From an uncultured delta proteobacterium (GTDB taxonomy: Bacteria; Myxococcota; UBA727; VGSZ01), in assembly GCA_963775425.1 (NCBI GenBank), contig CAVZJB010000016.1, positions 544,001 through 608,000 of the forward strand: a stretch of 64,000 bases of DNA. The letters are read 5' to 3'. Each line of letters begins with the position of its first letter. Positions within the stretch are counted from its first letter, which is position 1. The position numbers and the translations under genes are program-made. Shown in pieces: positions 257 through 46,823 of this stretch. The notes below the pieces were generated by a model. That model made no database searches and was not told the DNA's origin. It saw only the letters and a list, made by a program, of their open reading frames with translations.

Positions 257-1444
257 ATGGTGCACACCATGCCCTCGCGATCCGCGTTCGTACACGCGGC
301 CGACGTCGTCGAACGCGCGCTCGATGGAGCCGCTTGCGGCGCCGCCCGCGTCGACGCCCGCTTCGGCAGCGCCGAGGTCTCGTTCGCCGGGCTGTCGCCG
401 GCGCAAGCGGTCCACGCCGAGGCCCGCTTCGGCGCGCTCCCCCCAGCGGCCGCGCCCGACCCGGCGGTCCGGGTGCGGGTGGTGCGCGCGGCGCGCGAGG
501 GCTTCGTCGAGATAGACACCCGCGGCTGGGACAACACCATGGCGCTCGAGCACGCGCCCGACGTCGTCGTCGTCGTGGGCCGCGACTTCGTCGCCCGCGT
601 GGCGCCCGACGCACACGAGGCCACCGTGGCCACCTGGCTCGACGACGAGCACGTCATCGCCGCCCTCGAAAACCCGCTGCGTGTGCTGTCCGCCTACCTG
701 TGCCTCGCGCGCGGGGGCGCGCTCCTGCACTGCGCCGGCCTGGTCGACGGCGGGGCGGCGCGGGTGTGCTTCGGCCCCTCCGGGATCGGCAAGTCCACGG
801 TGGCGGCGGACTGGCTCGCCCGGGGCCGGAGCCTCCTGAGCGACGAGCTGTGCGCGCTCGAGCCCGAGGGCACGGGCTACGTCGTGGAGCAGCTCCCCTT
901 CGCCGGCGACGTCGCCGCCGCCGTCGTCCCCGGCGCCCGCGTGCCGCTCGCGGGGCTCTCGCGCCTCGACCAGGGCCCGGCCTCGCGCGTGGACCCCATG
1001 GGCAACGCCGCCGCCGTCGGCGCCCTCCTCGCGTGCGCGCCGTTCGTCAACGTCGATCCGTTCCGCCGCGACGCGCTCTTCTCCTCGCTCGAGCGCCTCG
1101 CGCGCGCGCACCCGGTGTCGCGCCTCACCCTGCGCCTCGGCGACGATCCGCGCGTCGTCCTCGCGGGGATCGAGGTCGCTTCGCGCTTCGCGCTCGCCCA
1201 CGGCGTCCGCTACCGCGTCGTCGACGGAGAGGCGCTCATCGTGTTGCAGACGTCGGGCGAGGCCGTGGGGCTGAACGGCACCGGCTCGCGGGCCTTCGAC
1301 CTCGCCGCGCGCGGCGCCTCGTTCGCGGCCATCGTCGACGCGCTCGACGGCGAGCTCGACGTCGAGCGCAGGACGCTCGAGAGCGATCTGCGCAGCTTCT
1401 TCGGCGAGCTCGTCGGCGGCGGCCTGCTCGAGGTGCGCGCGTGA
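257..1444 (+). CDS. HprK-related P-loop kinase fused to a C-terminal PqqD/RiPP recognition element (RRE) domain
   Basis: LLHCAGL, Walker A GPSGIGKST and LLSDEL are typical of HprK-like kinases. The last ~85 aa (YRVVDGEALIVLQTSGEAVGLNGTGSRAFDL...DLRSFFGELVGGGLLE) match the PqqD fold pattern. The start is probably ATG 257 or 269 rather than 65. Confidence 0.8.
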   Translation: MVHTMPSRSAFVHAADVVERALDGAACGAARVDARFGSAEVSFAGLSPAQAVHAEARFGALPPAAAPDPAVRVRVVRAAREGFVEIDTRGWDNTMALEHAPDVVVVVGRDFVARVAPDAHEATVATWLDDEHVIAALENPLRVLSAYLCLARGGALLHCAGLVDGGAARVCFGPSGIGKSTVAADWLARGRSLLSDELCALEPEGTGYVVEQLPFAGDVAAAVVPGARVPLAGLSRLDQGPASRVDPMGNAAAVGALLACAPFVNVDPFRRDALFSSLERLARAHPVSRLTLRLGDDPRVVLAGIEVASRFALAHGVRYRVVDGEALIVLQTSGEAVGLNGTGSRAFDLAARGASFAAIVDALDGELDVERRTLESDLRSFFGELVGGGLLEVRA

Positions 1445-2466
1445 GCTACGCCGACGTCATCGAAAACGCCTGGAACAAGAACGTGCTGCTCGTCGTGCTC
1501 TTCGAGCTCACCTACGACTGCAACTACGACTGCGTCTTTTGCTACAACGATCGGTCCCTCGCGGGGCGCAAGCTCGAGCTCGACGAGTACCTGCGCGTGC
1601 TCGACGAGCTCGCCGCCCTGGGCGTGTTGAACGTGGTGCTGTCGGGCGGCGAGCCCATGGTGCACCCCCACTTCTTCGACATCGGGGCCGCCGCCAAAGA
1701 GCGCGGCTTCGTGGTGCGTGTGAAGACCAACGGGCACCTGCTCCGCGGGGAGGCGCTCGAGCGGATGATGACCGACGTGGAGCCCCTCGCCGTGGAGGTG
1801 AGCCTGCACGGGGCCACCGCCGCCACGCACGAGAGGCAGACCAGGGTGCCCGGCAGCTTCGAGCGGCTCGTCGACAACCTGCGCGAGGCGCGCGACGCCG
1901 GGCTCCGCGTGCGCATCAACAGCACGCTCACCCGCTTCAACGAGGGCGAGCTCGACGCCATGTTCGCGCTCGCCGCCGCCCTCGGCTTCCCGCTCACGGT
2001 GGACCCGGACGTGACGCCGCGCGACGACGGCGATCGCTCACCGCTCGCCCTCGCCGCCAGCGACGACGCCCTGCGCGCGCTCGCCGGCCGGGGGCTCGTG
2101 CCCGGCGTGCACCACGAGGCGTGCGACACGCGCACCGACAAGCACTGCGGCGCCGGGTCATCGGCGCTGTGCATCGACCCGGTGGGCAACGTCTACCCCT
2201 GCGTGCAGTGGCGGCGCGCGGCGGGCAACGTGCGCGATGGCGCGCTGTCCGCCCTGTGGCGAAGCTCGCCCGTCCTCGCCGAGGTGCGCGCGCTCACCGT
2301 CGACGTCAAACGCATGGTGCAGTCCCACGACGCCGGCGCGTTCATGGGCTTTTGCCCCGGAACGGCCGAGAGCCTCGGCGGCGACCCGCTCGCTCCGTAC
2401 CTCAACGCCCGGCGTCGCAGTGACGCCGCGCTCGTGGTGCGCGGCAAGCTCCGCGTGCTCGACTGA
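1441..2466 (+). CDS. Radical SAM protein with SPASM/twitch-type C-terminal domain (PqqE-like peptide maturase family)
   Basis: The GTG start overlaps the upstream stop (GTGA). CxxxCxxC motif ELTYDCNYDCVFC, GGEP motif, TNG, and C-terminal CGAGSSALCIDPVGNVYPC. Confidence 0.9.
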   Translation: MSYADVIENAWNKNVLLVVLFELTYDCNYDCVFCYNDRSLAGRKLELDEYLRVLDELAALGVLNVVLSGGEPMVHPHFFDIGAAAKERGFVVRVKTNGHLLRGEALERMMTDVEPLAVEVSLHGATAATHERQTRVPGSFERLVDNLREARDAGLRVRINSTLTRFNEGELDAMFALAAALGFPLTVDPDVTPRDDGDRSPLALAASDDALRALAGRGLVPGVHHEACDTRTDKHCGAGSSALCIDPVGNVYPCVQWRRAAGNVRDGALSALWRSSPVLAEVRALTVDVKRMVQSHDAGAFMGFCPGTAESLGGDPLAPYLNARRRSDAALVVRGKLRVLD

Positions 2467-2474
2467 CGACGCGC

Positions 2475-2663
2475 TCAGCTCGAGATAGGTCCGCTCGGAC
2501 ACTGGCCGGGGTTGCCCTTGGCGGGAGGCGCCGGCGCGCACACCGCGGCGATGGCCTCGATGCGCTCGCGAAAGACCACGCGCGGCGCCGCGTACGGCTT
2601 CTTCTCGGGGTTGCCGCGGTTGTCCGGCGCTGTGTCCGGCGCGACCTGGGTGGGGGCCTTCAA
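2475..2663 (-). CDS. Candidate RiPP precursor peptide (62 aa)
   Basis: The TTG start at 2663 overlaps the C25 stop (TTGA), with GGAGG 5 nt upstream. Sequence MKAPTQVAPDTAPDNRGNPEKKPYAAPRVVFRERIEAIAAVCAPAPPAKGNPGQCPSGPISS: YxxP leader motif, two Cys, adjacent to RRE and rSAM genes. Confidence 0.7.
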   Translation of the reverse strand: MKAPTQVAPDTAPDNRGNPEKKPYAAPRVVFRERIEAIAAVCAPAPPAKGNPGQCPSGPISS

Positions 2664-5600
2664 CGCCGCCTCCGGCGCAGCAGCAGCGCGAGCCCGAGCG
2701 CGAGCGCCGCGAGGAGCGGTGCGCCGCCGCTCTGCGCGCAAGACGCCGAGTCCCCCGTGGAGGCGAGCGGCACGGTGGGGTCACCGAGCAGCTCTTCGGT
2801 GCCGAGGAGCCTCGCGTCGCCGCCGCCGTCGACGTACCCGCGCCCGGCGTCGACGAGGACGGCGCCCACCGTCCCGCCCTGCGAGAGCCGCGCGAAGAGC
2901 TGCGCCGCGAAATTGCCGGCGAGCGCGTCGCTGGTCTTCGTCGTGGGCGCGAGCGCGACGACGGCGCCGCCGGAGCGGATGAGGTCTTCACCGAGCCCCG
3001 GGAACGGAGCCAGCTCGAAGCGGTTGATGAGGCAGGTGAGCGCGAGCAGCGCCCACGGGCCGCGCGCCGCGAGCGCGTCCTCGTCGCGCGCCATCAGGAT
3101 GCCGTCGTTGCCGATGCGGTCCATGCCGCCGTGGCCGACGAAGGTCAGGAGGGACGAAGGCGCGAGGGCGTCGAGCACCGCGGCGCGCGTCTGATCCAAC
3201 GACGCGCCACCGGCCGACACCAGCGACGACGAGACCGTCACCTGCTGCCGCAAGCTCGCCGCCTCGGCCGCGAACGCGGCGCCGTCGCGCGGGCCGTCGG
3301 CGAGGAACGTGGCCGACGCTGGCCCGGCGAAGGCGCGCGCGCGCGCGAGGTAACCCTCGACGTCGGCCGCGCTGTGCGCCGGGATGCGGCCGACGGCGAC
3401 GTCGGGGACCCCGTCGCCGTCGACGTCGCCGGCCAGGGAGTCGGCGGCGGCCAGCCCGGCGCCGCCGGTCTGCTGGAGCAGCGGCGGGATGAAGTCCTCG
3501 TGCCGCCCTTGCACGTCGCGATAGTCGACGTCGCCGTCGCCGACGAAGACGGCGTAGCGCGGCGCGGGGCTCCAGCGCGCGACCGCAGCGGCGAGGAACC
3601 GGCGCAGCGCGCGGGGATCGGGGTCGCCGGCCGCGTACCGATCAAAGACGTCCTGCACGTCCACCACGCGGCTCACGAGCCCGCGCTCCGCGTGCCACGC
3701 GGCGAGGTCCGCCGCGGCGTCCAGGAACGCGTGGGGCGCGATGACGACGACGTCGGCGCCGCCGGCGGCGAGCGGGAGCGCGGGCCCCGCCGCGGGCACC
3801 ACGAGCGCGGGGCGCGCGCGCCCGTCCGCGAGCGCGAACACGCCGGCCGCCGGCAAGCGCGCGCGCAGCGCACCGTCGACGACGCGCGCGCCGGCGAGCC
3901 GCAGGAGCCGCCCGCCGTCGACGCGGTACAGCCACGACGACGCCGGCGCCCCGGCCAGCGCGACGACGTCCCCCGCCCCGCCCGCGAACACGCGCGGCGC
4001 CGCCGTGAGGGTGCGCTCGTAGTCGACGCGGACTGCGTCCAGGAACAGGGCGTTCATCGACACGCCGGGGTCGAGCACGGCGTCGACGGCGACGTGGACG
4101 TGGCCGCCGGCGACCGCGTCGGCGGGGAGGTCCAGCGAGCGCTCCACGCGGGCCACGCCGGAGAAGAACACGTCGCCGGCCGCGACGCCGTCGACGGTGA
4201 CGCGGACGTGGTGGTCGTCGGGCCTGCCCGCGTCGGTGGCGCCTTGCAGGGCGAGCGTGAGCCGCGGGGCGGCGCCGGCCTCGACGGCGCCGGGCGCGTC
4301 GACGTCGGTCTCGTAGTGGTCGTAGCCCGCGTAGCCCGCCGCGAGCGACGCGGCGAACCAGACGTCGGCGTTCGGGTCGAGGTCGACGCTGGTGCCGGGG
4401 AAGACGTCGTCGGCGCGCACCGCCGTGGCGCGGGCGCTGCGGCGTGTCACCGGCGCGACGCCTGGATCGGCGTCGACGACGCCCGCGCGCGCGCCGGCGG
4501 CCTCGGAGAGGAAGTACGTGCGCGCCGCGGCGAACGGGCTCGTCGAGCCCCGGCCCATGAAGACGAGCGCGCCGTCGCGGACGTCGACGGGGACGGCGAG
4601 CCCGTCGCTTTCGACCGCGATGTGCCCGTGGTCCGCGTCGTCGACGATGCGCTGCAGGGGGCGCTGAAGCAGCAGCGCGATCTGCGCGAGCGGAACGCCG
4701 ACGACGCCGTCGTCCTTCACGAGCACGCGCAGCCGCGCGGGCGGGCGAGCGCGCAACGGCGCCCCCGCGGACGGCAGCGCGGCGGGCGCGGCCATCATCG
4801 CGAGCTGCGGTGCGCCCGAGACACCGCTCCATTGCGGCGCGCCCCCGGCGAGGCTCGGCCCCCGCGGCAAGACCGCGCGCACGTCGACGACGTCGTAGGG
4901 GCCGTGCGCGGTGGCGTTGCCGCGCACGTCGTGCTCGGTGATGACGTAGGCCACCGCGCCGAACGCGGCCGCGTCGTCGTCGTGCACGGCGTAGGCGTGG
5001 CCCTCCGCGTGCATCGGGCTCGGCACCAGATCGCCGACGGGGGCGCGCTCGCCGTCTGCGCCGACGCGCTCGACGGAGAACCCGAGCGTGCCGGCCTCGC
5101 CGGCGGTGCGCCACGACACGTCGACGCCGCCGGGCGAGCGCTCCACGGCGACGTCGACGACGGACGCGTAGGTCTCCAGGCCCGCGGTGACCGCCAGCTC
5201 GCACAGCGGACCGAAGGTGAACGTGGCGCGCCCCTGCGTGCTGTTGCCGGTCTCGTCGACGTATTGCGCGGTCGTGCCCGCGGCCGTGGCGCCCGTGACG
5301 ACGATGCGCTCGCCCGCGGACGCCGGCGTGACGTCGACGTCGTAGGCGATGAGCGCCGTGGCCCCCGCTATGACGACGCCGGGGTTCCAGACCACGTCGC
5401 CCGCGACGCCCACGGCGGGGGACGTGGCCGTGCCCTGCGTGGCCGCGAGCGCACCGGCGAAGGACACGCCCGCCGGCACCGTCGACGTCACGGTGTGCGT
5501 GGCGGAGAACGTGATCGGCAGCGACGTCGGGTTCCGCACGCGCACCGTGACCGTGAGCGTCGACGTGCTCCCGGGCGCGGGCGGGTTCGGCCCGCCCTTG

Positions 5601-6637
5601 GCGCGTACGAATTGCTCGACGATGGGCTTCGCCGGCGCGGCGCCGCTGTCGCTCGGCAGGTAGAGGCGGAACGCGCCGGGCTCCGGTTGGTTGCGCGGGC
5701 TCGGCGGGTTGCCGCTGCCGGCCACCGCAGCGAATTGGCCTGCCACGGAGTAGGTAATGACGTTGGCGGCGGCGCCGCCGGCCTTGCGGACGTCGGCGGC
5801 GGCGGTCCACACGCCGTAGTTCTGCGCGGTGTTGTCGCTGGTGAACGGCGCCGACGCGTTGCTCCGCCAGACACCGTTGCCCGACACGTTCGTGAACGCC
5901 TGCGAGAAGCTCACGTTGCCGGTCAGCGTGTAGCTCGTGCCGGCCGCGCCGTCGGCGTCGAAGTCGTTGGAGGCGGCGGTGCAGCCGGAGGTCACCCAGG
6001 GGTGGAACGTGTTCACCTGCTGCGACGCGGTGGTAGGCCCGAGGCCGAGATAGCTGTCCGCGTACACCGGGATCTCGACGCCGCCTGCGCCGGGATCGCC
6101 GTCGTGGGCGCGGACGCCGTAGCCGGCGGTCTCGTCGCCGTTGTTGTTGGGATCGATGCGGAGCTCCCAGTGGCCCGCCGCGGGGTTTTGGACCGTCCCG
6201 AACAGCGCCGACCACGCGTTATCGACGCAGACCGCGGGCGTGTTGGCGTTGCTGCACACGACGGTGCCCCCCACCTGGGCCCCGCTCGGCGCAAACAGCG
6301 AGTAGGCCACCGACGTGTTGAACCGGCGGCCGGTGAGCAGATCGCGCGTGCCCTCCCCGTTGCCGCCGCGGCCGACGTCCGCGTCGAAGACCTCCACGAC
6401 GAGCTGCGAGAGGCCGGGCGGCACCTCGATGAAGAAGCGGTAGCTGTCGTTCAACGCCGGGGCCTGCGCGGTGCCGACCCAGTCGCCGCTCACGACCTGC
6501 TCGCCCGCGCCGTTCAGCCGCAACAGCGCGGTGGTGCTCGTGGGGTTGCTCGACGCAGCGGACGCCGCCGCGCACCACAGCGCCGCCACGGCGGGCGCGG
6601 CGCGGCACAGGGGGATCGGGAGCACAACGGAGCGCAC
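2660..6637 (-). CDS. Large secreted C25-family (gingipain-like) cysteine peptidase with DUF11/Ig-like region and MYXO-CTERM anchor
   Basis: N-terminal signal peptide and a DUF11-like TVTVRVRNPT...VPAGVSF segment. C25 hallmarks DVDGDGVPDVAVGRIP, FVGHGG (His) and ALTCL (Cys), ending LLGDP. C-terminus SCAQSGGAPLLAALALGLALLLRRRRR. Confidence 0.85.
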   Translation of the reverse strand: MRSVVLPIPLCRAAPAVAALWCAAASAASSNPTSTTALLRLNGAGEQVVSGDWVGTAQAPALNDSYRFFIEVPPGLSQLVVEVFDADVGRGGNGEGTRDLLTGRRFNTSVAYSLFAPSGAQVGGTVVCSNANTPAVCVDNAWSALFGTVQNPAAGHWELRIDPNNNGDETAGYGVRAHDGDPGAGGVEIPVYADSYLGLGPTTASQQVNTFHPWVTSGCTAASNDFDADGAAGTSYTLTGNVSFSQAFTNVSGNGVWRSNASAPFTSDNTAQNYGVWTAAADVRKAGGAAANVITYSVAGQFAAVAGSGNPPSPRNQPEPGAFRLYLPSDSGAAPAKPIVEQFVRAKGGPNPPAPGSTSTLTVTVRVRNPTSLPITFSATHTVTSTVPAGVSFAGALAATQGTATSPAVGVAGDVVWNPGVVIAGATALIAYDVDVTPASAGERIVVTGATAAGTTAQYVDETGNSTQGRATFTFGPLCELAVTAGLETYASVVDVAVERSPGGVDVSWRTAGEAGTLGFSVERVGADGERAPVGDLVPSPMHAEGHAYAVHDDDAAAFGAVAYVITEHDVRGNATAHGPYDVVDVRAVLPRGPSLAGGAPQWSGVSGAPQLAMMAAPAALPSAGAPLRARPPARLRVLVKDDGVVGVPLAQIALLLQRPLQRIVDDADHGHIAVESDGLAVPVDVRDGALVFMGRGSTSPFAAARTYFLSEAAGARAGVVDADPGVAPVTRRSARATAVRADDVFPGTSVDLDPNADVWFAASLAAGYAGYDHYETDVDAPGAVEAGAAPRLTLALQGATDAGRPDDHHVRVTVDGVAAGDVFFSGVARVERSLDLPADAVAGGHVHVAVDAVLDPGVSMNALFLDAVRVDYERTLTAAPRVFAGGAGDVVALAGAPASSWLYRVDGGRLLRLAGARVVDGALRARLPAAGVFALADGRARPALVVPAAGPALPLAAGGADVVVIAPHAFLDAAADLAAWHAERGLVSRVVDVQDVFDRYAAGDPDPRALRRFLAAAVARWSPAPRYAVFVGDGDVDYRDVQGRHEDFIPPLLQQTGGAGLAAADSLAGDVDGDGVPDVAVGRIPAHSAADVEGYLARARAFAGPASATFLADGPRDGAAFAAEAASLRQQVTVSSSLVSAGGASLDQTRAAVLDALAPSSLLTFVGHGGMDRIGNDGILMARDEDALAARGPWALLALTCLINRFELAPFPGLGEDLIRSGGAVVALAPTTKTSDALAGNFAAQLFARLSQGGTVGAVLVDAGRGYVDGGGDARLLGTEELLGDPTVPLASTGDSASCAQSGGAPLLAALALGLALLLRRRRR

Positions 6638-6794: not shown

Positions 6795-7637
6795 GTGAAG
6801 CTCCCCTTCGGCGCCGGCCGCGTGCTCGGGTCGCTCGCCGTCATGTCGCTCCTGCTCGCCGCCCTCGCGCGGCCACCGCTGCCCGGCGTCGCCCGCGTCG
6901 TCGTGGTGCTCGTCGTCGCGGCGCTCGCGGCGCTGTCGGCGCGCTCGAGCCTGCTGCTCATCGCCGCCCGCCGCGGGCTGCTCGTCGTCCAGGAGGGCGC
7001 GCCCCGTCACCGGCTCCTGCTCGTGAGCGTCCCCGCCGCCGCCGCGGGCGCGGTGCTCGGGGCGCCGCTGCTGGTGTTGCCGGCGGTGCACGCGCGCTTC
7101 GAGGTCCTCGTCGCCGGCCTCCTCGGCGCCCTCGCCGGCGCGGGCCTCGCCCTCGCCGACGACAGGCCCAAGGGCCCCCGGCCCACCACGCGCTTTTCGT
7201 GGCTGGTCCTCGACACGGCGCTGCCCGCGGGGATCGTCGCCGCGTCTGTGGGCGTCTGCGTCGCGTTCCTGCGGCTGCGCAACCTCGACGTCGTCACGCC
7301 CGGCGAGCTCGCCCGCCACCTCGGCATGACCACGTTCGCGTACGCGCTCCTCCTCGGCTTGGCGGGCTTCTTCAAGGCCTACGGCGAGCAGTCCGCCGGC
7401 CTCGTCGTCGTCGAAAAGACGGCCGCGTCCCTCCCCGGCCCCGTGCTCGCGGGCGCCGCCCTCGGCGTCACCCTCTTGTTCGCCGTGCCGCACCTCGCGC
7501 CGGCGCTCCCGCTGCGCGACGCGCTGATCCTCAAGGCGGCCGTCGGCCTCGTCGTCGGCGGCGGCCTCTCGTTGCTCGGCGCCCTTCAGGGAGCGCGGGC
7601 AGCGTCGCTCGGTCTCAAGCGGCGCAAGGCTAGCTGA
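6795..7637 (+). CDS. Hypothetical multi-pass membrane protein
   Basis: 280-aa ORF with about 8-9 hydrophobic segments, filling the gap between opposite-strand genes. Confidence 0.65.
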   Translation: MKLPFGAGRVLGSLAVMSLLLAALARPPLPGVARVVVVLVVAALAALSARSSLLLIAARRGLLVVQEGAPRHRLLLVSVPAAAAGAVLGAPLLVLPAVHARFEVLVAGLLGALAGAGLALADDRPKGPRPTTRFSWLVLDTALPAGIVAASVGVCVAFLRLRNLDVVTPGELARHLGMTTFAYALLLGLAGFFKAYGEQSAGLVVVEKTAASLPGPVLAGAALGVTLLFAVPHLAPALPLRDALILKAAVGLVVGGGLSLLGALQGARAASLGLKRRKAS

Positions 7638-35429: not shown

Positions 35430-37544
35430 TCAGCCCGAGGAGCTGAACACGAACGGATAGGTGACGAACACCTGGCCGCCGCCCTTGGGCTGCGGGAACT
35501 TCAAGCGCTGGATGATGCGCGTCACGCACGCGGCGACGGGCTTGGCCGAGGAGCCGCTGAACGTGTTCTGCGCCATCTGGGGGCTGGTGACGTCGCCGGA
35601 GCCGGTGATGACCCAGCTCGCGACGAGCTTGCCCTCGAGGTTCGGGTCCTTGTTCAGCTCTTTCTCGTAGCAGTACTTGATCTGCGACATGACGCGGTTG
35701 ATCACGCGCTGGATCTGCTCACGCGTCAGACCCCCCTCGTAGATGATCTTGCCGGGGACGATGCGGGTCATGCCCTTGCCGCGGCCGCCGAGGTCGATGT
35801 TGCCGTTGCCGCCGCTGCCCCGGCCGGTGCCGGAGCCGAGGCCGCCGATGCCGAGGCCGTTGCCGCCGCCGCCGGCGCCCGTGCCGCGGGAGCCGAGGCC
35901 GCCGGCGCCGCCGGCGTCACCCATCGACGCGCCCTTCAGGCCGCCGAGGGCGTTGTTGATGCCGCTGCCGAGGCCGCCGGGGCCGAAGACGTTGGACACG
36001 GCGCCCTGCGGGCCCTTGAGGCCGAGCTGCGCGAGGGCGTCCATGGCGATCTTGCGGTCCTCTTCGCGCTTGTCCTTGTCGACGGTGGGCGCGCCCTTCT
36101 TGGAGGCGAGCTTGTCCTCCTTGGGCTTGTCCTTCTTGCCGAACACGCCGGCCTCGTCCTTGTGCTTCGCGGCCTTCTTGCCGGAGAGCTGCTTCTCTTT
36201 CTTCTTCTGCTCCACCGTGAGGATGAGCTTGGTGAAGTCCTGCTGGTTCTTGAAGAGGTCGTCGTCGTCGAGCGACGGCAATTGGGCGGTGACGAAGAAG
36301 GCGAGCACGAGGCCGAGCTGCGCGATGAGCGCGAGCGCCAGCACCTTCATCCAGTTGTAGTCGAGGTCGCTGACGATCTGCAGCGGCGTGTACCGCTTGG
36401 AGTACTGGATGACGAGCTCGATGGGCCCGACGCGGACGTTGGCCTTCTGGCCGACGTCGAGGGTGACCGAGCCCGACGCCTGCCGGCCGTCGACGCTCGC
36501 CTCCATGCCCTGCGCGACGTTCACGGTGGCGCCCTGCGGCGACAGCGTGACGATGGCGAACGACGGCGCCGGGATGGACTGGTGCGCGATCTGGAAGCTG
36601 TTGCCTGGGGCCTGGCCGATGGTCACCGTGCCCACGCCGGCGAGGCGGCTGACGCCGATGACGGTGCCGCCCCACATCGCCGTGACGTCGACGTGGCCCT
36701 TGTTGCTCGGGCGCTCGTCGGCGCCGAGCTCCGGCGACAGGCGCCCGGCGAGACCGCTGGTCTCGCTGATCTTGCGGTGCGCGCTCGGCGCGCCGCGGCC
36801 GAGGCGGAAGCCCGACCTGGAGACCTCGCGGTGCACGGTGCGCGGCGCCATCGACGTCGCCGTCCGCGGCGGCGCGCCGTTGCCGCTGCCCTTCTCGGAC
36901 GCGCGGCCCGACGGCGGCGCGGCCTTGGCCGGCGCGGTCTTCTCGGCCTCCTTCGACGACGGCACGCCGTTCTTGGCGCTCTTGTCGTTCTTGGCGCTCT
37001 TGTCCTTCTCCGACGCCTTGTCCTTCGGGTCGGCCTTGCCGCGGTCGCGCACGACCTCGGTCTTCTGCTCCTGCTTGCGCGGGGGCGCGGAGACCGCCTT
37101 GGGCGCGGCCTGCAGGTCCGCGGTGTCGCGCTCCATGAGCGGCGGCACGTCGGCGAGCGGCGCGGTGACCTCGGGGTTGATGACCTCGTGGCCCGTGGCG
37201 CGCCGGATGGGCACGGTGGGCGCGAGGACGTCGCCGCCGAAGTGCACGGAGATCTTGGCCTTGCCGACGGTGATGACGTCGCCGTCGTTCACGTCGGTCT
37301 CGCCTTTGAGCTCCTTGCCGTTGAGCTCCGTGCCCTCGTCGCTCCCGAGGTCGAGCACCGCGACCTTGCCGTCTTGCGGCTTGATCATGCAGTGCAGGGA
37401 GCTGACGTCGTCTCCCTCGATGCGCACGTGTGCCGATGCACCGGAGCCGACCATGATGGGATCCATCGAGTTGAACTCGAGGACCTTGGTGGCGCCGTCG
37501 GCGAGGTTGATGGTGAGGCTGATCGAGGGCTTGTTCTCGGCCAT
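35430..37544 (-). CDS. gltG: Gliding transducer GltG/PglI (FHA, TM, TonB-C-like domain)
   Basis: N-terminal FHA-like domain, TM helix, Gly-rich GGLGSRGTGAGGGG stretch, and C-terminal IQRVI...IKYCYEKEL...FPQPKGGG..V.YPFVF. Confidence 0.85.
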   Translation of the reverse strand: MAENKPSISLTINLADGATKVLEFNSMDPIMVGSGASAHVRIEGDDVSSLHCMIKPQDGKVAVLDLGSDEGTELNGKELKGETDVNDGDVITVGKAKISVHFGGDVLAPTVPIRRATGHEVINPEVTAPLADVPPLMERDTADLQAAPKAVSAPPRKQEQKTEVVRDRGKADPKDKASEKDKSAKNDKSAKNGVPSSKEAEKTAPAKAAPPSGRASEKGSGNGAPPRTATSMAPRTVHREVSRSGFRLGRGAPSAHRKISETSGLAGRLSPELGADERPSNKGHVDVTAMWGGTVIGVSRLAGVGTVTIGQAPGNSFQIAHQSIPAPSFAIVTLSPQGATVNVAQGMEASVDGRQASGSVTLDVGQKANVRVGPIELVIQYSKRYTPLQIVSDLDYNWMKVLALALIAQLGLVLAFFVTAQLPSLDDDDLFKNQQDFTKLILTVEQKKKEKQLSGKKAAKHKDEAGVFGKKDKPKEDKLASKKGAPTVDKDKREEDRKIAMDALAQLGLKGPQGAVSNVFGPGGLGSGINNALGGLKGASMGDAGGAGGLGSRGTGAGGGGNGLGIGGLGSGTGRGSGGNGNIDLGGRGKGMTRIVPGKIIYEGGLTREQIQRVINRVMSQIKYCYEKELNKDPNLEGKLVASWVITGSGDVTSPQMAQNTFSGSSAKPVAACVTRIIQRLKFPQPKGGGQVFVTYPFVFSSSG

Positions 37545-37766
37545 ATCTGTTTCCTGTCATTCGAGAACACGCGGGTTTCGTCAACACGCGTCGGCGAGAA
37601 AGCGATTTTCGGGGCGCACACTTGCGCACATGACCGACGGATGGACACCGGCGCGGCCCGCGGAGTTCCCCCGCACCTCCGGATCGCGCGCAGCGTCACC
37701 GGATCCGACGACGTCGCCAGGCGGACCGGCCCCGGGGAGCGGCCGCGCTTGGGTCAGCGACCGGAG

Positions 37767-38024
37767 TCAAAGGCTGTCCGCGCTCCGGGACAGCTCGGGG
37801 CGAAAGCTCGGCCGCAGCGCGATGAGGTTGCGAAAGTGGGCCCCGGGTCGTGCGCGGACGACGCCGATGCTCGGCAGCGCGCGCCGGCCCTTGAGGGTGG
37901 CGTCGGTGAACTCGAGTCGCGTGACGCGCCTTGCCACGGGGGCGTCGACAGCAGCGTCGAGCGCAGGCGAATCGACGGGCGCGGCGTTGACCTGTGCGGA
38001 AAAGAACAGCGCGAGCAACAGCAC
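37767..38024 (-). CDS. Divergent GltF/CglF paralogue
   Basis: TRLEFTDATLKG...HFRNLIALRPSFRPELSRSADSL aligns with the neighbouring GltF. Confidence 0.7.
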   Translation of the reverse strand: MLLLALFFSAQVNAAPVDSPALDAAVDAPVARRVTRLEFTDATLKGRRALPSIGVVRARPGAHFRNLIALRPSFRPELSRSADSL

Positions 38025-38208
38025 GGGACCTCCCTCGGTCCCCGTCGGACACCATCGGCCGCGCCCCGGTTCGCCGACGTCGAGCCCCGGTCAAGCGCGC
38101 ATGCCTTGGGCCCGAGCCGTCAGGCGCGCGCCGCAGACACGACGCGCTCGCCGCGCACGGCGTTGCTCAGGCCTGTCACCGCGCGTGTCGGCGCGCGGAG
38201 GTCGGAGG

Positions 38209-38484
38209 TCAGAGCGCGGAGACGGAGCGCTTGAGCTCGGGACGGAAGTTGCCGCGGAGCTCGATCAGGTTGCGGAAGCGGGTCTTCTTCCGGTTCTTGA
38301 TGTAGCTGCCCTCGGGCTTGGTCAGCTCGCCTTCGATGCTGACGTCGGAGAAGTCGATGACCGTCTTCTTGTTGTAGACGGTCTTGTCGTCTTCCTGGAT
38401 GGTCTTGTCCTGCGCGAGCGCGGCGGGGGCTGCGAGGGCGGCGACGAGGGCGGCGACGAGGGCGGCGAGCGCGAGCTTCTTCAT
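38209..38484 (-). CDS. gltF: Gliding motility protein GltF/CglF
   Basis: Signal peptide, then VYNKKTVIDFSDVSIEGELTKPEGSY...FRNLIELRGNFRPEL. Confidence 0.88.
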   Translation of the reverse strand: MKKLALAALVAALVAALAAPAALAQDKTIQEDDKTVYNKKTVIDFSDVSIEGELTKPEGSYIKNRKKTRFRNLIELRGNFRPELKRSVSAL

Positions 38485-38550
38485 GGCGACCTCACTGTAG
38501 CATCTGCGAAAGCGGAACAAGCCGGTCAGGCGGCGGACGGTGGGACGGGC

Positions 38551-39837
38551 CTACTTCCCGCCAGGCGCGGGCTTGTCCGCGGGCTTGTCCGCGGGCTTCT
38601 CGGCGGCCTTGGCGGCGGCGTCGGCGGCCGCCTGCTTCTTCAGCATCTCCTGCTGCTTCTTCAGGATCTCCTGGTTCTTCAGCGTCTGCTCGATGTTCTT
38701 GCAGTCACTGCCGACGGGATCCTTGTCGTCGAGCTTGCCGCCCTTGGCGTCCTTGTACTTGTTGCACCAGTCGAGGGCGTCCTTGGGCTTGTTGAGCTGG
38801 AGGTTCGTGACCTCGGCGATCTCTCCGTACGCCTCGGCGGCGCTCGGGTCGATCTCGAGCGCGCGCTGGAGCTGCTTGATGGCCTCGTCCGCCTTCTGCT
38901 GGCCGGCGAGCGCGAAGCCGTAGCCGAGGTTGGCCTCCGGCTGCCGCGGCTCCAGCTTCATGGCCTCGCCGTAGTGCAGCGCGGCGGTGTCGTAGTCCCG
39001 GTAGCGCAGCGCGATGGACCCGAGGTTCAGGTGCGCCGAGATGAGGCTCGGGTCGATCTCCACGGCCTTCTTGAAGAAGCTCACCGCCTCCGGATACTTG
39101 CCGCGCTTCACGCGGATCATGCCGCGGTTGTTGTACAGAGCGGCGTCCTTGTCGTTGAGCTTGAGCGAGTTGATGGCGATGGTCTCGGCGAGCGCGTACT
39201 TCTCCTGATCGAAGTAGATGAGCGAGAGGTTCTTCAGCGCGTCGACGTTGTCGGGCTGCCGCGACAACAGCTTGCGGCACGCCTTCTCGGCCTGGTCGTA
39301 ATCCTTGTTGAGGCGGTAGAGCACGATGAGGTTGTTGAGCATGTCCGGATCGGCCTCGCCGCCGGCCTTCTCCTGCTTGGCGAGCGCGCCCTCGTACAGG
39401 TCGATGCCCGCGCGGTAGTCGCCCTTCTCCTTGGCGAGGACGCCGAGGAGGATGATGACCTCGCGGCTGTCGGGCTTGTCCTTCTGCAGGCCGCCGAGCT
39501 CCGACTTGGCCTGGTCGTAGAGCCCGAGCTTGATGTCGCAGCTCGCCATGCCGAGCTTGGCGTCGAAGTTGCCGCCGTCCTTCTTCAGCGCCTGCGCGTA
39601 CTTGGCCTTGGCCTCCTGGGCCTTGCCGTCCTTGAGGAGCTTGCCGGCGTCGGCGATGAGGCCCTGCAGGGAGTCCTCGGCGTGCTTCTTGGGCGTCACG
39701 GACGTGGTCTTCGGGCCCGTGGGCTTGGTGGCCGCCTTGGTCGTGCCGCACGCCGCGAGCTGGAAGCTCGCAGCGGCGACGACGACGACGACGACGAGTC
39801 GGGAGAGGAGGTTCATCGGGGGCTTCATCGGGTTCAC
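38551..39837 (-). CDS. gltE: TPR lipoprotein GltE/AglT-like
   Basis: Lipobox LAA-C and multiple TPRs, located between gltD and gltF. Start is GTG 39837 (overlapping the gltD stop) or ATG 39828/39816. Confidence 0.8.
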   Translation of the reverse strand: MNPMKPPMNLLSRLVVVVVVAAASFQLAACGTTKAATKPTGPKTTSVTPKKHAEDSLQGLIADAGKLLKDGKAQEAKAKYAQALKKDGGNFDAKLGMASCDIKLGLYDQAKSELGGLQKDKPDSREVIILLGVLAKEKGDYRAGIDLYEGALAKQEKAGGEADPDMLNNLIVLYRLNKDYDQAEKACRKLLSRQPDNVDALKNLSLIYFDQEKYALAETIAINSLKLNDKDAALYNNRGMIRVKRGKYPEAVSFFKKAVEIDPSLISAHLNLGSIALRYRDYDTAALHYGEAMKLEPRQPEANLGYGFALAGQQKADEAIKQLQRALEIDPSAAEAYGEIAEVTNLQLNKPKDALDWCNKYKDAKGGKLDDKDPVGSDCKNIEQTLKNQEILKKQQEMLKKQAAADAAAKAAEKPADKPADKPAPGGK

Positions 39838-42800
39838 CGTTGGGCCGTGCGCGTGGGTGCGGCGACCGCTGCGCTCGGGAAGAAGGGGAGCTCGTAGATG
39901 CGACCGAACTTCGCGGGCTTGAACTTCTTCAGCCGGTCCTCGATCTCGATGGTGTACGGCGAGTAGATGCCGAGCTTGAACGCGGTGTCGAGCGCCGCTT
40001 CCAGGGCCTTGATGCCCTGGTCCTCGACGGGGAACGCCACGTTCTCGAGCTCGGAGTGGTAGATGTCGAGCGCCTCGGGGTTGTTGGCGATGGCCGGCGG
40101 ATCGGGCGCGTTGCGCAGCGTGTCGACGTAGTCGAGCAGCGCGTCGGCGACGCGGAGCAGGCCGGCGACGGCCCACTCGCCGCTGCCGTAGTCTTTCAGT
40201 GCATAGTATTTCTTGGCGATCTCATCGCGCTTGTTCTTCTTCAGATCGAGTGCTTCCTTGACCATCTTCATGCCCTTGCGGCCGGAGACGCCCTTCTTCT
40301 GCTCGATCTTGATGCCCTTGTAGTCGAGCCAGTCGGGCTCGAGCAGGTGGAAGGCGCAGTAGCCGCCGGTGGTGGCCCCGATGTCGGACTTCTTCACCTT
40401 TGCGTCGACCTTCTTCCAGCCGCCCATGATGTCCTTGCAGGTCTCGAGCATCTCCTTGTCGCGCCCTGCCTTCTCGAGCATCAGCGCGGTCTTGTAGCGC
40501 GACGTCAGCACCTGCTCCGGCGTGCCGTCCCTGCCGTGGAGCTTGTCGAAGTCGCCGTAGAGGGCGGCGGCGCGCTTCCAGTCGCCCTTGTCCTCGTAGA
40601 CCGCGGCCATGCGCAGATAGACATCAGGGATGTCCTTCTGCTTGGGGAATTCCTTGATGTAACGCGCAAAGAGCTTCACGGCGTTTTCGGTGTCACCGAG
40701 ACCGAGATAGAAGATGCCAGCGTTGTAGACGGAGTCCGGCGACTTGGGGCTCCTCTTGTATTTGTCGGCGTACTTGATGTACCAGTCCGCCGCCTCTTTG
40801 TACTTGGCGACCTTCTCGTAATACGCGGGCATGTTCGCGTACGTGTCCTGCTCGAGCTTGTCGTTCAGATCCTTCTCGACGCTGCCGTCGTTCTTCAGGA
40901 TCTTGTAGTCGGTGATTTCCTTCTTGTAGTCCTTGAGGAGGCGCTGCGCGGCCTCGAGCGCGTCGTCCTCGTGGTTGATGTTCGCGTAGAGGAGCTGCAT
41001 GTCGTAGACGGCGAGCGGCGCATACGTGGACTTGGGGAACTCCTTCACGAAGCCGTCGAGCTTGTCGGCGGCGGCGAGCGTCTTGTCGGCGTCCTTGGTG
41101 TTCTCCGCCTCTTCGCGCAGCTTGTCCGTGTTCTTGAAGCTCGCGCCCTCCATGAACTGCGCGACCTCCTTGGCGAACTTCGCGTCCTTCATCAGCTCTT
41201 TTTTGCCGTCGAAGGTGCGCGACCACTTCTCGAGCGCCGGGTAGTTCTCGCGGAACGCGTAGCTGTCGAGGATCTGGTCCGCGCCGCTGCGCGCGTACTC
41301 GGAGTCCGGCCAGCGCTCGATGAGCTCGCCGAACCGCTTGGCCGCTTCGTCGAAGTGGAAGTGGCTCTGGTAGATGTACGCGGCTTTGTACTTCACGACC
41401 TCCAGCTCCTCCTTGAGCTTGGGGTCCTTGGTGATGTCCTTCTGCGGCACGACGGAGACGTAGGCGTCGCAGGCCGCGGCGAGCGAGACCTCGTCCGCGG
41501 GGATCTCCTGCTCGGCGAAACGCGTGTCACCCTTCTTCTCGTTCTTGAGGTGCTTGATGGTGACGTGCTTCTTCTCGATGGTGCCCTTCGACTTCTTCGG
41601 CTTGCACTTGCCGGCCTTCTCTTGATCGGGGGTGCAATCGTTGATGTTGACGATGCCGTTCTTGCTGACGTCCGGAGGCGCGACCTTGTCGACGATCTTC
41701 TCCCACGCGAGCACCGCGTTGTACGCGCACTGCCGCGTGTACTGTCCCTTGGCGTCGCGCTTGACGACGGCGTCGTACTGCTGGGCCGCGTCACGCCACT
41801 TGCCGAGGTCCCACAGGAGCTCGGCGTAGAAGAAGTTCAGGCGATACGCGTTGTCGGAGTCGGGGAACGCCTTCAGGTACTGCGCGTAGATGTCGGCGGC
41901 GACCTCGTAGTCGTCGTAGTGTTTGAACTTCTGCGCGTAGCGGTGGTAGTCGGTGACGAGCTCGCGCATGCGGCTCTCGGCGACGGCGCGGGCGCGCTCC
42001 ACGGTGACCTTGTTCGCCTCGTTCTTGCGCCACCACGGCGAGCCCGGGCGGTACAGCTCGACGAGGCGGCCGACCTCCTTCTTGACGTTGGCGCGGTCGC
42101 CGAGGCCGGCGTAGGCCTCCACGATGCTCGACTGGTAGTCCGGCGCCTGCGCGTTGTCGGGGTCGAGGTTGATGAGGAGCCGCAGCGTGTCGATCTGCAG
42201 CGGGCGCTTGCCCTGCTCCTTGTAGACGGCGGCGAGCTTGCCAGTCAGGCGGTAGGCCTCCTTCGCCCCCGCCTCCTTCTTGATGTACTCGTACGCGTCA
42301 CGCGTCTGGTCGAGCTGCGAGTACGTGAGCACCATGTCGTTGAGCGCCTCACGCTTGAGCTGGATGCCGTCCTTGCCGCGCGAGCGCCGGATGACGTCCT
42401 TGAACTTCTTGAGCGCCTCGTCGTAGGTCTGCGCGTTGTAGTCGCACCACGCGAGCTTGTAGTAGGCGTACGTGGCCGTGCCCTCGCAGCGCGCCCTGCG
42501 GTCCTTGTCCGCGTTCTTGCACTTGGTGGCGACCTCGTAGGCCCGCTTGTACGCCTTGGTGCTCTTCGTCAGGTCGTTGTGCTTGAAGTAGTACTCGCCG
42601 AGCTGCACGTAGCTGTCCGAGACGTACTCGCTCTCCTGGTACTGCCGGATGAGCTGCGAGTAGTTCTGGATCGCTTCCTTCTCGCGCCCGGCCTCCTGCT
42701 GGTTGAAGGCCATGATGTAGAGGACTTCGTCGAGGCGCGGGTAGTCGGGGAAGCGGTCGAGGACGATCTGGTAGTTCTCGAGCGCCTGCTTTTTGTAGAC

Positions 42801-43328
42801 GTCGCTCTTCTTCGTGTACTGCTGGAGCCCCGGCTCCTTGCCGTGCCGCCCGCCGTCCACCCAGCGGTCGTAGGCGTCCTGGAATTCCTTGAACTCGCCC
42901 TGGTACGCGAACTTGGATTTGGCCCAGTAGATCTCGGCGAGGCGGAAGACGAGCTCGCCCTCCTGTGACTTGCCGTGCACCTTGGGCAGGAGGCCCTTGA
43001 TTTCGGCGATCTCCTCGTCGCGCTTGGCGTCGGCCTTCTTGGAGTTGTCGAACTCCTTGGACGACAGCGCGTCCTGCCGCTGGATGGTGGCGGGGCCGGT
43101 GGTGCGCAGGGCCTCGTCGGCGTCGTCCTTCTTGTCGTCGCCCTTCTTGGCGTCGGCCTTCTTGTCGCTCTTCTTGTCGGCCTTTTTGTCGTCGCGGCGG
43201 TGGTGCTTCTTCTTCTTCTTCTTCGCCATCGCCGCCGGGAACGACAGCCCCTGGGGCGTGACGTCGATGGTCCCGGCGAGGAACAGCACGAAAGAGAGGG
43301 CGAACACGCGGAAGGCGGACTGCGCCAT
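39834..43328 (-). CDS. gltD: Large periplasmic TPR protein GltD/AgmU-like
   Basis: About 1160 aa with a signal peptide and TPRs. FRLAEIYW, YPRLDEVLY and YYKLAWCDYN segments. ATG at 43328. Confidence 0.85.
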   Translation of the reverse strand: MAQSAFRVFALSFVLFLAGTIDVTPQGLSFPAAMAKKKKKKHHRRDDKKADKKSDKKADAKKGDDKKDDADEALRTTGPATIQRQDALSSKEFDNSKKADAKRDEEIAEIKGLLPKVHGKSQEGELVFRLAEIYWAKSKFAYQGEFKEFQDAYDRWVDGGRHGKEPGLQQYTKKSDVYKKQALENYQIVLDRFPDYPRLDEVLYIMAFNQQEAGREKEAIQNYSQLIRQYQESEYVSDSYVQLGEYYFKHNDLTKSTKAYKRAYEVATKCKNADKDRRARCEGTATYAYYKLAWCDYNAQTYDEALKKFKDVIRRSRGKDGIQLKREALNDMVLTYSQLDQTRDAYEYIKKEAGAKEAYRLTGKLAAVYKEQGKRPLQIDTLRLLINLDPDNAQAPDYQSSIVEAYAGLGDRANVKKEVGRLVELYRPGSPWWRKNEANKVTVERARAVAESRMRELVTDYHRYAQKFKHYDDYEVAADIYAQYLKAFPDSDNAYRLNFFYAELLWDLGKWRDAAQQYDAVVKRDAKGQYTRQCAYNAVLAWEKIVDKVAPPDVSKNGIVNINDCTPDQEKAGKCKPKKSKGTIEKKHVTIKHLKNEKKGDTRFAEQEIPADEVSLAAACDAYVSVVPQKDITKDPKLKEELEVVKYKAAYIYQSHFHFDEAAKRFGELIERWPDSEYARSGADQILDSYAFRENYPALEKWSRTFDGKKELMKDAKFAKEVAQFMEGASFKNTDKLREEAENTKDADKTLAAADKLDGFVKEFPKSTYAPLAVYDMQLLYANINHEDDALEAAQRLLKDYKKEITDYKILKNDGSVEKDLNDKLEQDTYANMPAYYEKVAKYKEAADWYIKYADKYKRSPKSPDSVYNAGIFYLGLGDTENAVKLFARYIKEFPKQKDIPDVYLRMAAVYEDKGDWKRAAALYGDFDKLHGRDGTPEQVLTSRYKTALMLEKAGRDKEMLETCKDIMGGWKKVDAKVKKSDIGATTGGYCAFHLLEPDWLDYKGIKIEQKKGVSGRKGMKMVKEALDLKKNKRDEIAKKYYALKDYGSGEWAVAGLLRVADALLDYVDTLRNAPDPPAIANNPEALDIYHSELENVAFPVEDQGIKALEAALDTAFKLGIYSPYTIEIEDRLKKFKPAKFGRIYELPFFPSAAVAAPTRTAQR

Positions 43329-43936
43329 GGATGCGATCCTCGACGTGGGGTGAGCCAGCTCACGCCTAGAGAATTGAGCGGGCAAACACAACCGCCGTCG
43401 CCGTCGAGAACCGCAGGTATTACACGGACCTACACAGCCCCGCGCGGGCGAAAGCCGGCGCGCATCTGGTCGCGGAGCGCTCGGGCACAGGCTCGCCTGC
43501 GCCGTCCGCCGCGGGCCGCGCCACCGCTGGCAGGTGGAGCGCGTACCGAAGGCGGCAGCGAGGAGCGGGAGCTGACCTGCGAAGTTGCAGCCTGCCGGTG
43601 CGTCGACGTCGGCGAGGCTGTGGTGCCGGTGGTGGAGCTGCGGCGTCGGCCGAAGCGGAAGCGCACGTTGGCGTGCAGCGGGATGGCCCACAGGGAGATG
43701 AAGGCGGCGCAGGCGCCGAAGGTCTGCTTCGAGAGCCGAGCGCGAACAGCGGCGCAAACTGGGCCGTGCGCGTGAGGATGACGTCGACGGGGTGGACGCG
43801 AGCGGTGCCGCGTGGCCGGGCTCGTCGTCGCCGGCACAAGCGCAAAGCCGGCGACGACGACGACAGCCCCGGCATCCCGGCGCCGACATGCGCGGGCCCG
43901 TGGAGCGATGCCGGGCGCGAACAACGGGCCGAACGA

Positions 43937-43961
43937 GGCGGGGGACGAGCCCCCGCCCTAC
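43937..43961 (-). repeat. GTAG-type REP palindrome, copy 1 (GTAGGGCGGGGGCTCGTCCCCCGCC)
   Basis: GTAG foot followed by an 8-bp GC stem with a 5-nt loop. Recurs at 44150 and 44884. Confidence 0.75.
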
Positions 43962-43977
43962 GCGGCGGCGAGAATCC

Positions 43978-44569
43978 GACGACGACAAGCCGCCGCGTGG
44001 CGCCACGCACGCGAAGCCGGCGACGACGACAAGTCGCCGCATGGCGGCACGCACGCGAAGCCGGCGACGACGACGACAGCCCCGGCATCCCGGCGCCGAC
44101 ATGCGCGGGCCCGTGGAGCGATGCCGGGCGCGAACAACGGGCCGAACGAGGCGGGGGGCGAGCCCCCGCCCTACGCGGCGGCGAGAATCCGACGACGACA
44201 AGCCGCCGCATGGCGCCACGCACGCGAAGCCGGCGACGACGACAAGTCGCCGCATGGCGCCACGCACGCGAAGCCGGCGACGACGACAAGCCGCCGCATG
44301 GCGCATGCACGCGAAGCCGGCGACGACGACAAGTCGCCGCATGGCGGCACGCACGCGAAGCTGGCGACGACGACGAGTCGCCGCATGGCGGCACGCACGC
44401 GAAGCGGCGACGACGACAAGCCGCCGCATGGCGGCACGCACGCGAGGCCGGCGAGGACGACAAGTCGCCGCATGGCGGCACGCACGCGAAGCCGGCGACG
44501 ACGACAAGCCGCCGCATGGCGGCACGCACGCGGGCGACGACGACAAGTCGCCACGCACGCGAAGCCGGG
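43978..44569. repeat. 44-bp hairpin-containing minisatellite, ~10 copies plus a truncated one
   Basis: Unit GACGACGACAAG(C/T)CGCCGCATGGCGGCACGCACGCGAAGCCGGC with an internal GCCGC-ATG-GCGGC inverted repeat. Confidence 0.9.
44150..44174 (-). repeat. GTAG-type REP palindrome, copy 2
   Basis: Same as copy 1 with one loop substitution. Confidence 0.75.
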
Positions 44570-44883
44570 GACGACGAGCCCGGCACCCGGGACCAACCAG
44601 GAAGGCGGCGACGACGAGCGCGGCACGGGAAGCGAGGCGGGGCGCGAACGAGGGGCCGGACGAGCCCCCTGCTCTCCTCGCGCCGCGCGTACAAAAGGCA
44701 CTCCGCGGAACAGATGAGATCGCCCGCGTGCTGCGCGAGACGCACGACGCCACGCGCGCCGCACGCCGCGTCGAGGCCGCGCGCGACGACGAGCCCGGCC
44801 CCCGGCACCAACCAGGAGCCCGGCGACGACAGGAGGCCGGCGACGAGCCCGGCGAGGCGGGGCGCGAACGACGGGTGGGACGA

Positions 44884-45196: not shown

Positions 45197-45220
45197 GCTG
45201 TCCGCGCGCGTCAGCGCGCA

Positions 45221-46813: not shown

Positions 46814-46823
46814 GGTCGCTGCC

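Follow-up and report, generated by a model that had tools for sequence, protein, structure and literature searches.

A four-gene locus (positions 257-6637) in a 64,000-nucleotide stretch of DNA from an uncultured delta proteobacterium of the Myxococcota (contig CAVZJB010000016.1, positions 544,001 to 608,000; this whole stretch is hereafter the window) is the intact, reduced myxobacterial copy of a widespread, uncharacterized family of RiPP systems (RiPP, ribosomally synthesized, post-translationally modified peptide), best described as the linear polyphosphorylated peptide (LPP) pathway plus a radical S-adenosylmethionine (rSAM) step. The genes are present, their catalytic motifs are intact and they are co-conserved across related loci. 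It is very probable that the four genes form a real peptide-modification cassette.

The two gene pairs converge. On the + strand, an HprK-like kinase fused to a PqqD-type RiPP recognition element (RRE; 257-1444, 395 aa) precedes the rSAM enzyme (1441-2466, 341 aa). On the - strand, a protein of the C25 protease family (2660-6637, 1325 aa) precedes a 62-aa precursor peptide with a TTG start (2475-2663). All four genes are intact, and the tight coupling claimed in the original prediction is found in full: a GTGA overlap joins the first pair (1441-1444) and a TTGA overlap the second (2660-2663), a GGAGG ribosome-binding site (2669..2673, - strand) lies 5 nt ahead of the TTG inside the final C25 codons, and 8 nt separate the rSAM and peptide stops. 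GC content at third codon positions (GC3) is host-like, at 0.89-0.96. Pfam recovers PqqD (PF05402 at aa 331-391, with weak HprK-type hits to the kinase), Radical_SAM and SPASM (PF04055 and PF13186) and Peptidase_C25 (PF01364 at aa 964-1291), while no NCBIfam equivalog model reaches its cut-off for any of the four products and the precursor has no model hit at all. The predicted lack of a lasso cyclase, pqqBC and a transporter holds for family scans of the four genes, and the genes called on either side, which were not family-scanned, show no sign of one.

The precursor peptide and its core

The peptide comprises a basic stretch, a YxxP leader motif (Tyr24 at nt 2594) and a predicted core. Its 14 database homologues vary at the N-terminus and are near-invariant in the C-terminal half, which together with a GC3 of 0.89 argues that it is a real precursor and more than a chance open reading frame. 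Scanning species genomes gave 97 relatives. In the 80 loci kept from these, titles name Acidobacteriota in every case except two, and mainly Thermoanaerobaculia. For a non-circular check, loci were picked by the rSAM alone and searched within 1.5 kb by a rule containing only the leader and the first Cys. A peptide was found in 25 of 30 such Acidobacteriota loci and in 0 of 300 random 4-kb control windows, so the outcome that would have spoken against the original prediction, homologous rSAM loci without a similar peptide, did not occur. Host-phylum rSAM loci gave 31 of 49, a set in which some places are counted more than once and some rSAMs are distant.

In the register taken from LPP (Popov et al., 2026; PMC13381572), the predicted core (2478..2546, - strand) is AVCAPAPPAKGNPGQCPSGPISS, 23 residues with an unmodified monoisotopic mass of 2105.00, carrying Cys3, Lys10, Cys16 and a C-terminal Ser23. 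The core matches the clade consensus and the leader differs from it at two positions. Among 53 unique precursors, 43 combine the Tyr24-x-x-Pro27 leader with a first Cys at core position 3, 52 have at least two Cys and 45 end in Ser or Thr. Parsed homologues of the window peptide are more uniform still: Cys at core position 3 is found in it and in 76 of 77, a C-terminal Ser in 76 of 77 (the sole exception is cut by a contig end) and Lys at -6 in all 77 peptide-query cores. The cores hold a conserved single Lys (44 Lys in all), which lies between the cysteines in 42 of 52. In the group assigned to the rSAM clade that lost the auxiliary cluster II (AuxII) motif, Lys stands 5-8 residues before a Cys in 29 of 30 precursors, the 30th having Arg, and all 30 end in Ser or Thr; this assignment was by search group, with one chance hit dropped before counting, and 18 of the 30 acidobacterial and 3 of the 4 host-phylum rSAMs were also checked against the tree. 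Across K-x5-C cores of all groups the Cys3-to-Lys distance is 2, 4, 5, 7, 9, 12, 15 or 20 (7 here), which ties the Lys to the second Cys and not to the leader. We rejected a lipoprotein reading of the xxC motif by inspection, as there is no hydrophobic h-region.

Family loci and partners supplied elsewhere

The usual layout of the family is convergent as in the window, with C25 and peptide genes facing rSAM, PqqD, kinase, S26 peptidase, TPR, O-antigen-ligase-like and PF14907 genes on the other strand. O-antigen-ligase-like and priming glycosyltransferase genes flank acidobacterial loci. Of 59 peptide loci with at least 6 kb downstream, 55 carry the rSAM, 55 PqqD, 56 the kinase and 54 S26, the kinase and PqqD counts including those of a second neighboring cassette; a nucleotidyltransferase is found in 40 of 51 peptide loci with both flanks. 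The proposed co-occurrence of peptide, kinase/RRE and rSAM across genomes is thus conserved in most of the 59 loci, and C25 is present in 28 of the 51.

An rSAM match at E<=1e-35 occurs in 85 of 301 sampled Acidobacteriota genomes, and the rSAM clade at E<=1e-40 in 0 of 10 genomes of the host's own family. In an unrooted quick tree, the clade that holds the host rSAM is mostly acidobacterial, and the enzyme stands apart from other copies of its phylum. The patchy rSAM distribution is consistent with transfer, for which we claim no donor, and the cassette is probably a horizontally spread set.

Neither an S26 nor a PF14907 gene lies in cis at the window cassette. The host has just one clear S26 of this type (C8:390423-390843, with Ser/His/Asp motifs). 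It belongs to a paralogous cassette on contig C8 (G000:C8, L002:7421-16518, - strand), which encodes PqqD, a giant 1636-aa Ig/FG-GAP protein, a 58-aa precursor that keeps the register and has K-x5-C, a kinase, a full-SPASM rSAM, a methyltransferase and S26. The only PF14907 gene of the host is on C5, beside O-antigen-ligase-like and priming glycosyltransferase genes. S26 also lies away from the rSAM in G016, G011 and G687, and was present in all five genomes tested for it. It is plausible that the C8 cassette supplies S26 in trans.

Two further observations concern these loci. Cys replaces the catalytic Ser of the family's S26 in 8 of 12 rows covering the motif (L007, L008, L016, L021, L049, L057, L176 and L030). 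A second cassette often adjoins the first (L008:7846-7959 and L012:7821-7970, both - strand, and about 15 other Thermoanaerobaculia loci), with a 480-aa exported protein, a tiny YxxP peptide, PqqD, a lasso-B2-like peptidase, a kinase and PF14907, and no cyclase seen; the core of its peptide would have only 3-4 residues, with one Ser at position 3 in the LPP register.

The radical SAM enzyme

The CxxxCxxC motif of the rSAM is intact (C27, C31, C34). The predicted rSAM-SPASM assignment stands as far as both Pfam matches go; the SPASM domain is truncated, with C236, C254 and C305 as the sole conserved auxiliary Cys and the AuxII cysteines lost. In a quick tree made with no rooted test, one clade has strong support (SH-aLRT 98), and none of its 42 rows has the AuxII motif, 2 of 65 loci being skipped as incomplete. 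Foldseek of the structure model (pLDDT 88.7) ranked CteB first, and a fold search placed ChlB, CteB, SkfB, SuiB and anSME within about 1 Z (24.4-23.2; root-mean-square deviation 3.1-3.6; 273-315 aligned residues).

CteB, a thioether enzyme, has an open site on auxiliary cluster I, whereas anSME has two auxiliary clusters, both fully ligated (PMC6231123); in PapB and Tte1186 the substrate Cys or Sec binds an auxiliary Fe (PMC10177961). By analogy with CteB, the three conserved auxiliary Cys probably leave one iron site open. Aromatic residues are absent from the core, which would rule out cyclophane, Lys-Trp and Tyr-dependent chemistries. Given this and a three-ligand auxiliary site like that of thioether enzymes, thioether formation is the likeliest rSAM reaction, and the best candidate acceptor for Cys16 is Lys10. 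In Blastocatellia the same core is found with a full-SPASM rSAM of another clade (L019, L027, L038, L058 and L082), as if one enzyme had replaced another. Viral contigs yielded no relative of the window rSAM.

The kinase-RRE fusion

The kinase part of the fusion (about aa 1-305, within 257..1444, + strand) holds His158, a P-loop (aa 173-181) and Asp196, all invariant in 12 aligned kinases, and the PqqD/RRE domain (about aa 308-395; nt 1178-1441, + strand) follows in frame. The same fusion is found in P0020 and P0021 at 58-59% identity, so an assembly artefact was rejected; the nearest fused homologue is named Myxococcota. It is absent from all 88 kinases of peptide loci and present in 1 of the 150 best 50%-identity representatives. 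A metagenome scan with the fused kinase gave only two short loci, both unfused. Among sequencing runs no RNA holder was listed, and contigs from a soil run (share 0.05) gave short pieces, none across the fusion junction. The homologue comparisons indicate that the fusion is real, rare and made from adjacent genes. The original prediction was right to call it; it is a rare host-lineage addition and no defining feature of the family.

Modeling of the RRE-leader complex, proposed at the outset as a check, gave weak support, scoring 0.55 against 0.02 for the best control, with runs agreeing in at least 93% of contacts and a partner pLDDT of at least 53. This mark picks up 116 of 157 solved complexes and lets 2 of 215 mismatches through; 0.55 falls in the band at or below 0.60, which holds 18 of the 157 solved complexes and both mismatches, and complexes of this kind are already solved, so that the model may be memory. 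As to the kinase substrate, PadeK and PsmK phosphorylate a C-terminal Ser, and PsmN-dependent hexosylation is described as well (PMC6993621); the conserved terminal Ser fits phosphorylation of this type.

A different fusion occurs elsewhere in the host genome (G000:C11, L108:7235-8593, + strand), where a Ser/Thr kinase of the PknB type carries a PqqD-like domain at its C-terminus (aa 385-444), with no obvious precursor nearby.

The C25 surface protein

The C25 protein has a likely signal peptide (by inspection), an N-terminal region with weak DUF11 similarity, an Ig-like middle domain and a C-terminal PorU-like region with the C25 domain, whose His1169/Cys1202 pair is invariant in 53 of 53 family members. 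A single-sequence PDB search of the C25 region found nothing; a profile search then found PorU, the best solved relative (E 1.4e-54 vs 1.8e-32 for RgpB), and PorU structure 6za2 was top by profile and by fold. PorU, the type IX secretion sortase, is a C25 transpeptidase that prefers amines, with Arg722 as marker residue (PMC4560394). The window protein shares its gingipain-fold catalytic domain, His/Cys dyad and preceding beta domains; it differs in its long N-terminal region, MYXO-CTERM tail and non-Bacteroidota host, in scoring 80.4 bits with the PorU model NF033707 against a cut-off of 420, and at the marker position (Cys+32), where 36 of 53 family members have Leu and the window copy alone has Lys. 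An ESM Atlas search with residues 30-600 returned no usable match, and a homologue search with the C-terminal part returned only itself among 8000 scored candidates, a sensitivity limit given that 51 relatives were already in hand.

The MYXO-CTERM tail (2666..2740, - strand) has all features of the motif (Cys motif, hydrophobic helix, Arg-rich end), which is typical of Myxococcota (PMC11980579); it scored 15.6 bits in one scan (cut-off 15.85) and 20.5 in another, over the cut-off. The host genome has about 60 such tails over the cut-off. Acidobacterial orthologues have a short acidic tail where this one stands: Glu is the last residue in 39 of the 51 C25-family genes of peptide loci and a comparable hydrophobic tail is found in none of them, and a second host-phylum locus, L191, also carries a MYXO-CTERM tail. 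The predicted anchor is thus present and, by these comparisons, is a host adaptation, not a defining feature of the family.

C25 lies directly upstream of the peptide gene in 31 of 80 loci and is absent within the fetched flanks of 23 of 51. C25 genes are found in 76 of 85 rSAM-positive and 44 of 216 rSAM-negative Acidobacteriota genomes, kin among which are not independent. Five of five genomes tested with a peptide locus lacking C25 had one elsewhere, and the window C25 is the only one in its genome. This co-occurrence argues that C25 is a true partner of the cassette, as transpeptidase, processing protease or target. The constant partner may perhaps be a large exported protein, since C8-type cassettes use a non-C25 giant.

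In another acidobacterial subgroup (L174, L175, L177, L178 and L179), an ECF-sigma-like gene (by inspection) follows the C25 gene and two precursor copies are common.

Relation to known systems

By sequence comparison, the closest characterized system is LPP and not SynChlorMet. The LPP system is encoded by LppA/K/B/S/D/N of Paenibacillus alginolyticus, and its leaders carry YxxP plus 12 residues to the cut made by an S26 peptidase with RRE help (PMC13381572). The window system shares the YxxP leader with its 16-residue run to the cut site and the pairing of an RRE with an HprK-like kinase, fused here and discrete in LPP; the wider family adds the archaeal-type S26 peptidase and the PF14907 nucleotidyltransferase. 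Both are linked to polysaccharide loci and have no macrolactam cyclase. They differ in that Cys here replaces the Ser phospho-acceptor at core position 3, and in the rSAM, second Cys, conserved Lys, terminal Ser and C25 partner found here. The window cluster has no S26 in cis, and neither the NTP transferase nor the MsbA-like transporter (searched among the four genes) is in it; the hosts are Acidobacteriota and Myxococcota in place of Bacillota. The main text of the LPP paper is silent on radical SAM, C25 and Acidobacteria, and its supplements place acidobacterial S26 proteins in another network cluster (PMC13381572).

Phosphorylated lasso peptides (paeninodin with PadeK; pseudomycoidin with PsmK/PsmN, PMC6993621) share the YxxP leader, B1-type RRE, HprK-like kinase, conserved C-terminal Ser and, in fuller clusters, a PF14907-type partner. 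The four genes differ from them in having no cyclase or B2 peptidase and no ring-forming Asp or Glu in the core, with an rSAM and two Cys instead; a B2 profile from acidobacterial loci found nothing in the host genome, in which the cyclase was not searched genome-wide. Sacti- and ranthipeptide maturases (CteB, SkfB, PapB, Tte1186) likewise pair an RRE-dependent rSAM bearing an auxiliary cluster domain with a Cys core. In contrast to their seven-Cys SPASM motif with two auxiliary clusters, the window rSAM has one three-Cys site; here the RRE is stand-alone or kinase-fused, the partners are a kinase and S26, and the putative thioether would have Lys as candidate acceptor in place of Asp, Glu, Thr or backbone. 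The SynChlorMet and HprK-related A/B cassettes (NCBIfam) combine HprK-like kinase, PqqD and rSAM/SPASM parts as well, whereas the window has one rSAM and a different precursor, and its proteins score below every cut-off (ScmC 15.6/125, ScmE 76.5/400, ScmF 88.1/400, TIGR04352 24.6/200 and TIGR04355 17/200 bits). The original view that the system fits no recognized class is right in that it belongs to none of the families tested, with LPP now as its closest known class. A literature search, to which most subscription journals and bioRxiv supplements were closed, turned up no description of the cassette, and term searches in PMC8545088 and bioRxiv 2023.06.07.544157 matched no text.

A candidate pathway

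We propose, at slightly less than an even chance, an RRE-dependent RiPP pathway related to LPP in which a crosslink is combined with a terminal phosphate. The fused RRE would bind the YxxP leader. The rSAM, with a probable open iron site on its single auxiliary cluster, would then bind a core Cys and form a carbon-sulfur crosslink, most likely from Cys16 to a carbon of Lys10 (K-x5-C), with Cys3 crosslinked too or left free. The kinase would (poly)phosphorylate Ser23, and an S26 peptidase, in trans from the C8 cassette, would cut after leader Ala(-1), freeing the 23-mer. In fuller clusters the PF14907 nucleotidyltransferase and glycan-ligase-like genes could decorate the phosphate. The product may act with the C25 protein, which is co-translated and anchored at the surface, in the cell envelope.

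In favor of this proposal, K-x5-C is found in 22 of the 53 unique precursors (shuffle mean 2.9, maximum 10 in 2000 shuffles) and a terminal Ser in 40 (shuffle mean 6.7). Several points weigh against it. These counts are of related sequences, for which shuffles overstate significance, and one peptide search pattern already contained the Lys. The Lys-to-Cys spacing ranges from 5 to 8, and outside the AuxII-lost clade only 8 of 22 precursors have a Lys 5-8 residues before a Cys, 15 of 22 ending in Ser or Thr. The tie of five enzymes by Z means that the fold does not fix the reaction type, and the Blastocatellia pairings mean that the three-Cys site is not required. We know of no Cys-Lys thioether RiPP, and a literature search for a precedent found none. 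The C8 and window peptides gave no BLASTP alignment, which leaves cross-use of the C8 S26 a supposition. Finally, LppK phosphorylates Ser3 (PMC13381572), the position held by Cys in the window peptide.

Alternative explanations

The modified peptide, cyclized by the rSAM and phospho-glycosylated at its C-terminus, could instead serve as the amine acceptor in a PorU-like transpeptidation, the C25 domain cutting its own or a neighbor's cargo domain and ligating it to Lys10 or to the new N-terminus. The relationship to an amine-preferring transpeptidase, the enrichment of C25 in rSAM-positive genomes, the single conserved Lys between the cysteines and the glycan genes beside acidobacterial loci all favor such protein anchoring, as does the terminal Glu of most C25-family proteins, in whose place the window copy has its MYXO-CTERM anchor. 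It remains an unlikely reading: the PorU marker Arg is not kept, the NF033707 score is far below its cut-off, many loci have no C25 in their fetched flanks, C8-type cassettes carry an Ig/FG-GAP giant instead and no exporter is linked. Slightly less likely is its boldest form, in which the RiPP is a building block of protein anchoring, with an unprecedented Cys-Lys thioether ring, a Ser tied to envelope glycan by kinase and nucleotidyltransferase, and a PorU-like C25 ligating a giant surface protein onto the peptide, re-routed to a MYXO-CTERM anchor in this host.

We give a similarly small chance to an LPP-like chemistry at position 3, with Cys3 oxidized by the rSAM (to formylglycine, as by anSME) or S-phosphorylated by the kinase and Lys10/Cys16 in structural or binding roles. 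The register matches LPP Ser3 exactly and the Cys is well conserved there, the RRE is fused to the kinase and anSME ties with CteB in the fold search. Against it stand the terminal Ser or Thr, an ordinary kinase target, the two fully ligated anSME clusters and the rejection of Thr and Tyr at position 3 by LppK (PMC13381572).

The original prediction had the peptide matured or displayed by C25; the regular leader peptidase of the family is S26, so that C25 as maturing protease is only a rival reading. If the C25 protease took off the leader or trimmed the peptide on the cell surface, the loss of S26 here would be explained, and this reading accords with the translational coupling of the two genes, the frequent upstream position of C25 and its invariant His/Cys pair. 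S26 is near-universal, however, and the C8 copy has its motifs; LppS cleavage needs the cytoplasmic RRE (PMC13381572), and C25 would be exported while precursor and RRE are not. We consider this improbable, and equally so a partly decaying import whose enzymes are intact and which has made no mature product since S26, nucleotidyltransferase and glycan genes were lost. The lack of these genes in cis, the two leader deviations and the absence of the rSAM clade from same-family genomes suggest decay; the intact frames, host-like GC3, kept catalytic residues and consensus core argue against it, and the host-type anchor and the fusion, kept in two other proteins, imply adaptation.

C-x-K-x5-C, present in 8 acidobacterial cores, is the spacing of Bowman-Birk-type inhibitor loops, and gingipain K cuts after Lys, so the two Cys might form a disulfide loop that offers Lys10 to the active site of C25, the peptide serving for inhibition or latency and the rSAM acting otherwise (e.g., by epimerization). 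This is a very remote prospect: from Cys3 to Lys the distance is 7 in the window core and reaches 20 in others, and the strict rSAM linkage is left unexplained.

Sequences around the cassette

A promoter scan of the locus found none, and terminator-like sites fall inside the C25 gene. The gene at 6795-7637 was rejected as a system member, having no relatives among the 80 peptide loci. Where S26 would be expected, directly upstream of the four genes, a stretch outside genes (1-130, - strand) resembles the catalytic loop of a Ser/Thr protein kinase and is a possible gene remnant. By inspection alone, a gene run at 35430-49211 (- strand) resembles a myxobacterial gliding-motility (Glt/Agl-type) cluster.

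Implications

The window copy is a good test case for the family, as precursor, kinase-RRE fusion and rSAM suffice, three cytoplasmic parts in about 2.4 kb. From the Lys-x5-Cys signal a specific rSAM crosslink is predicted, one that may be new. According to the LPP paper, it is unknown what LPPs and paeninodins do (PMC13381572), and the close link with a C25 surface protein offers a lead on this that can be tested. If the peptide were indeed a building block of protein anchoring, about a quarter of the Acidobacteriota genomes sampled would connect RiPP chemistry with protein sorting, and phosphopeptides such as LPP and paeninodin would gain a function. From the frequency of its rSAM in Acidobacteriota, the pathway may rank among the commonest unstudied RiPPs of soil bacteria.

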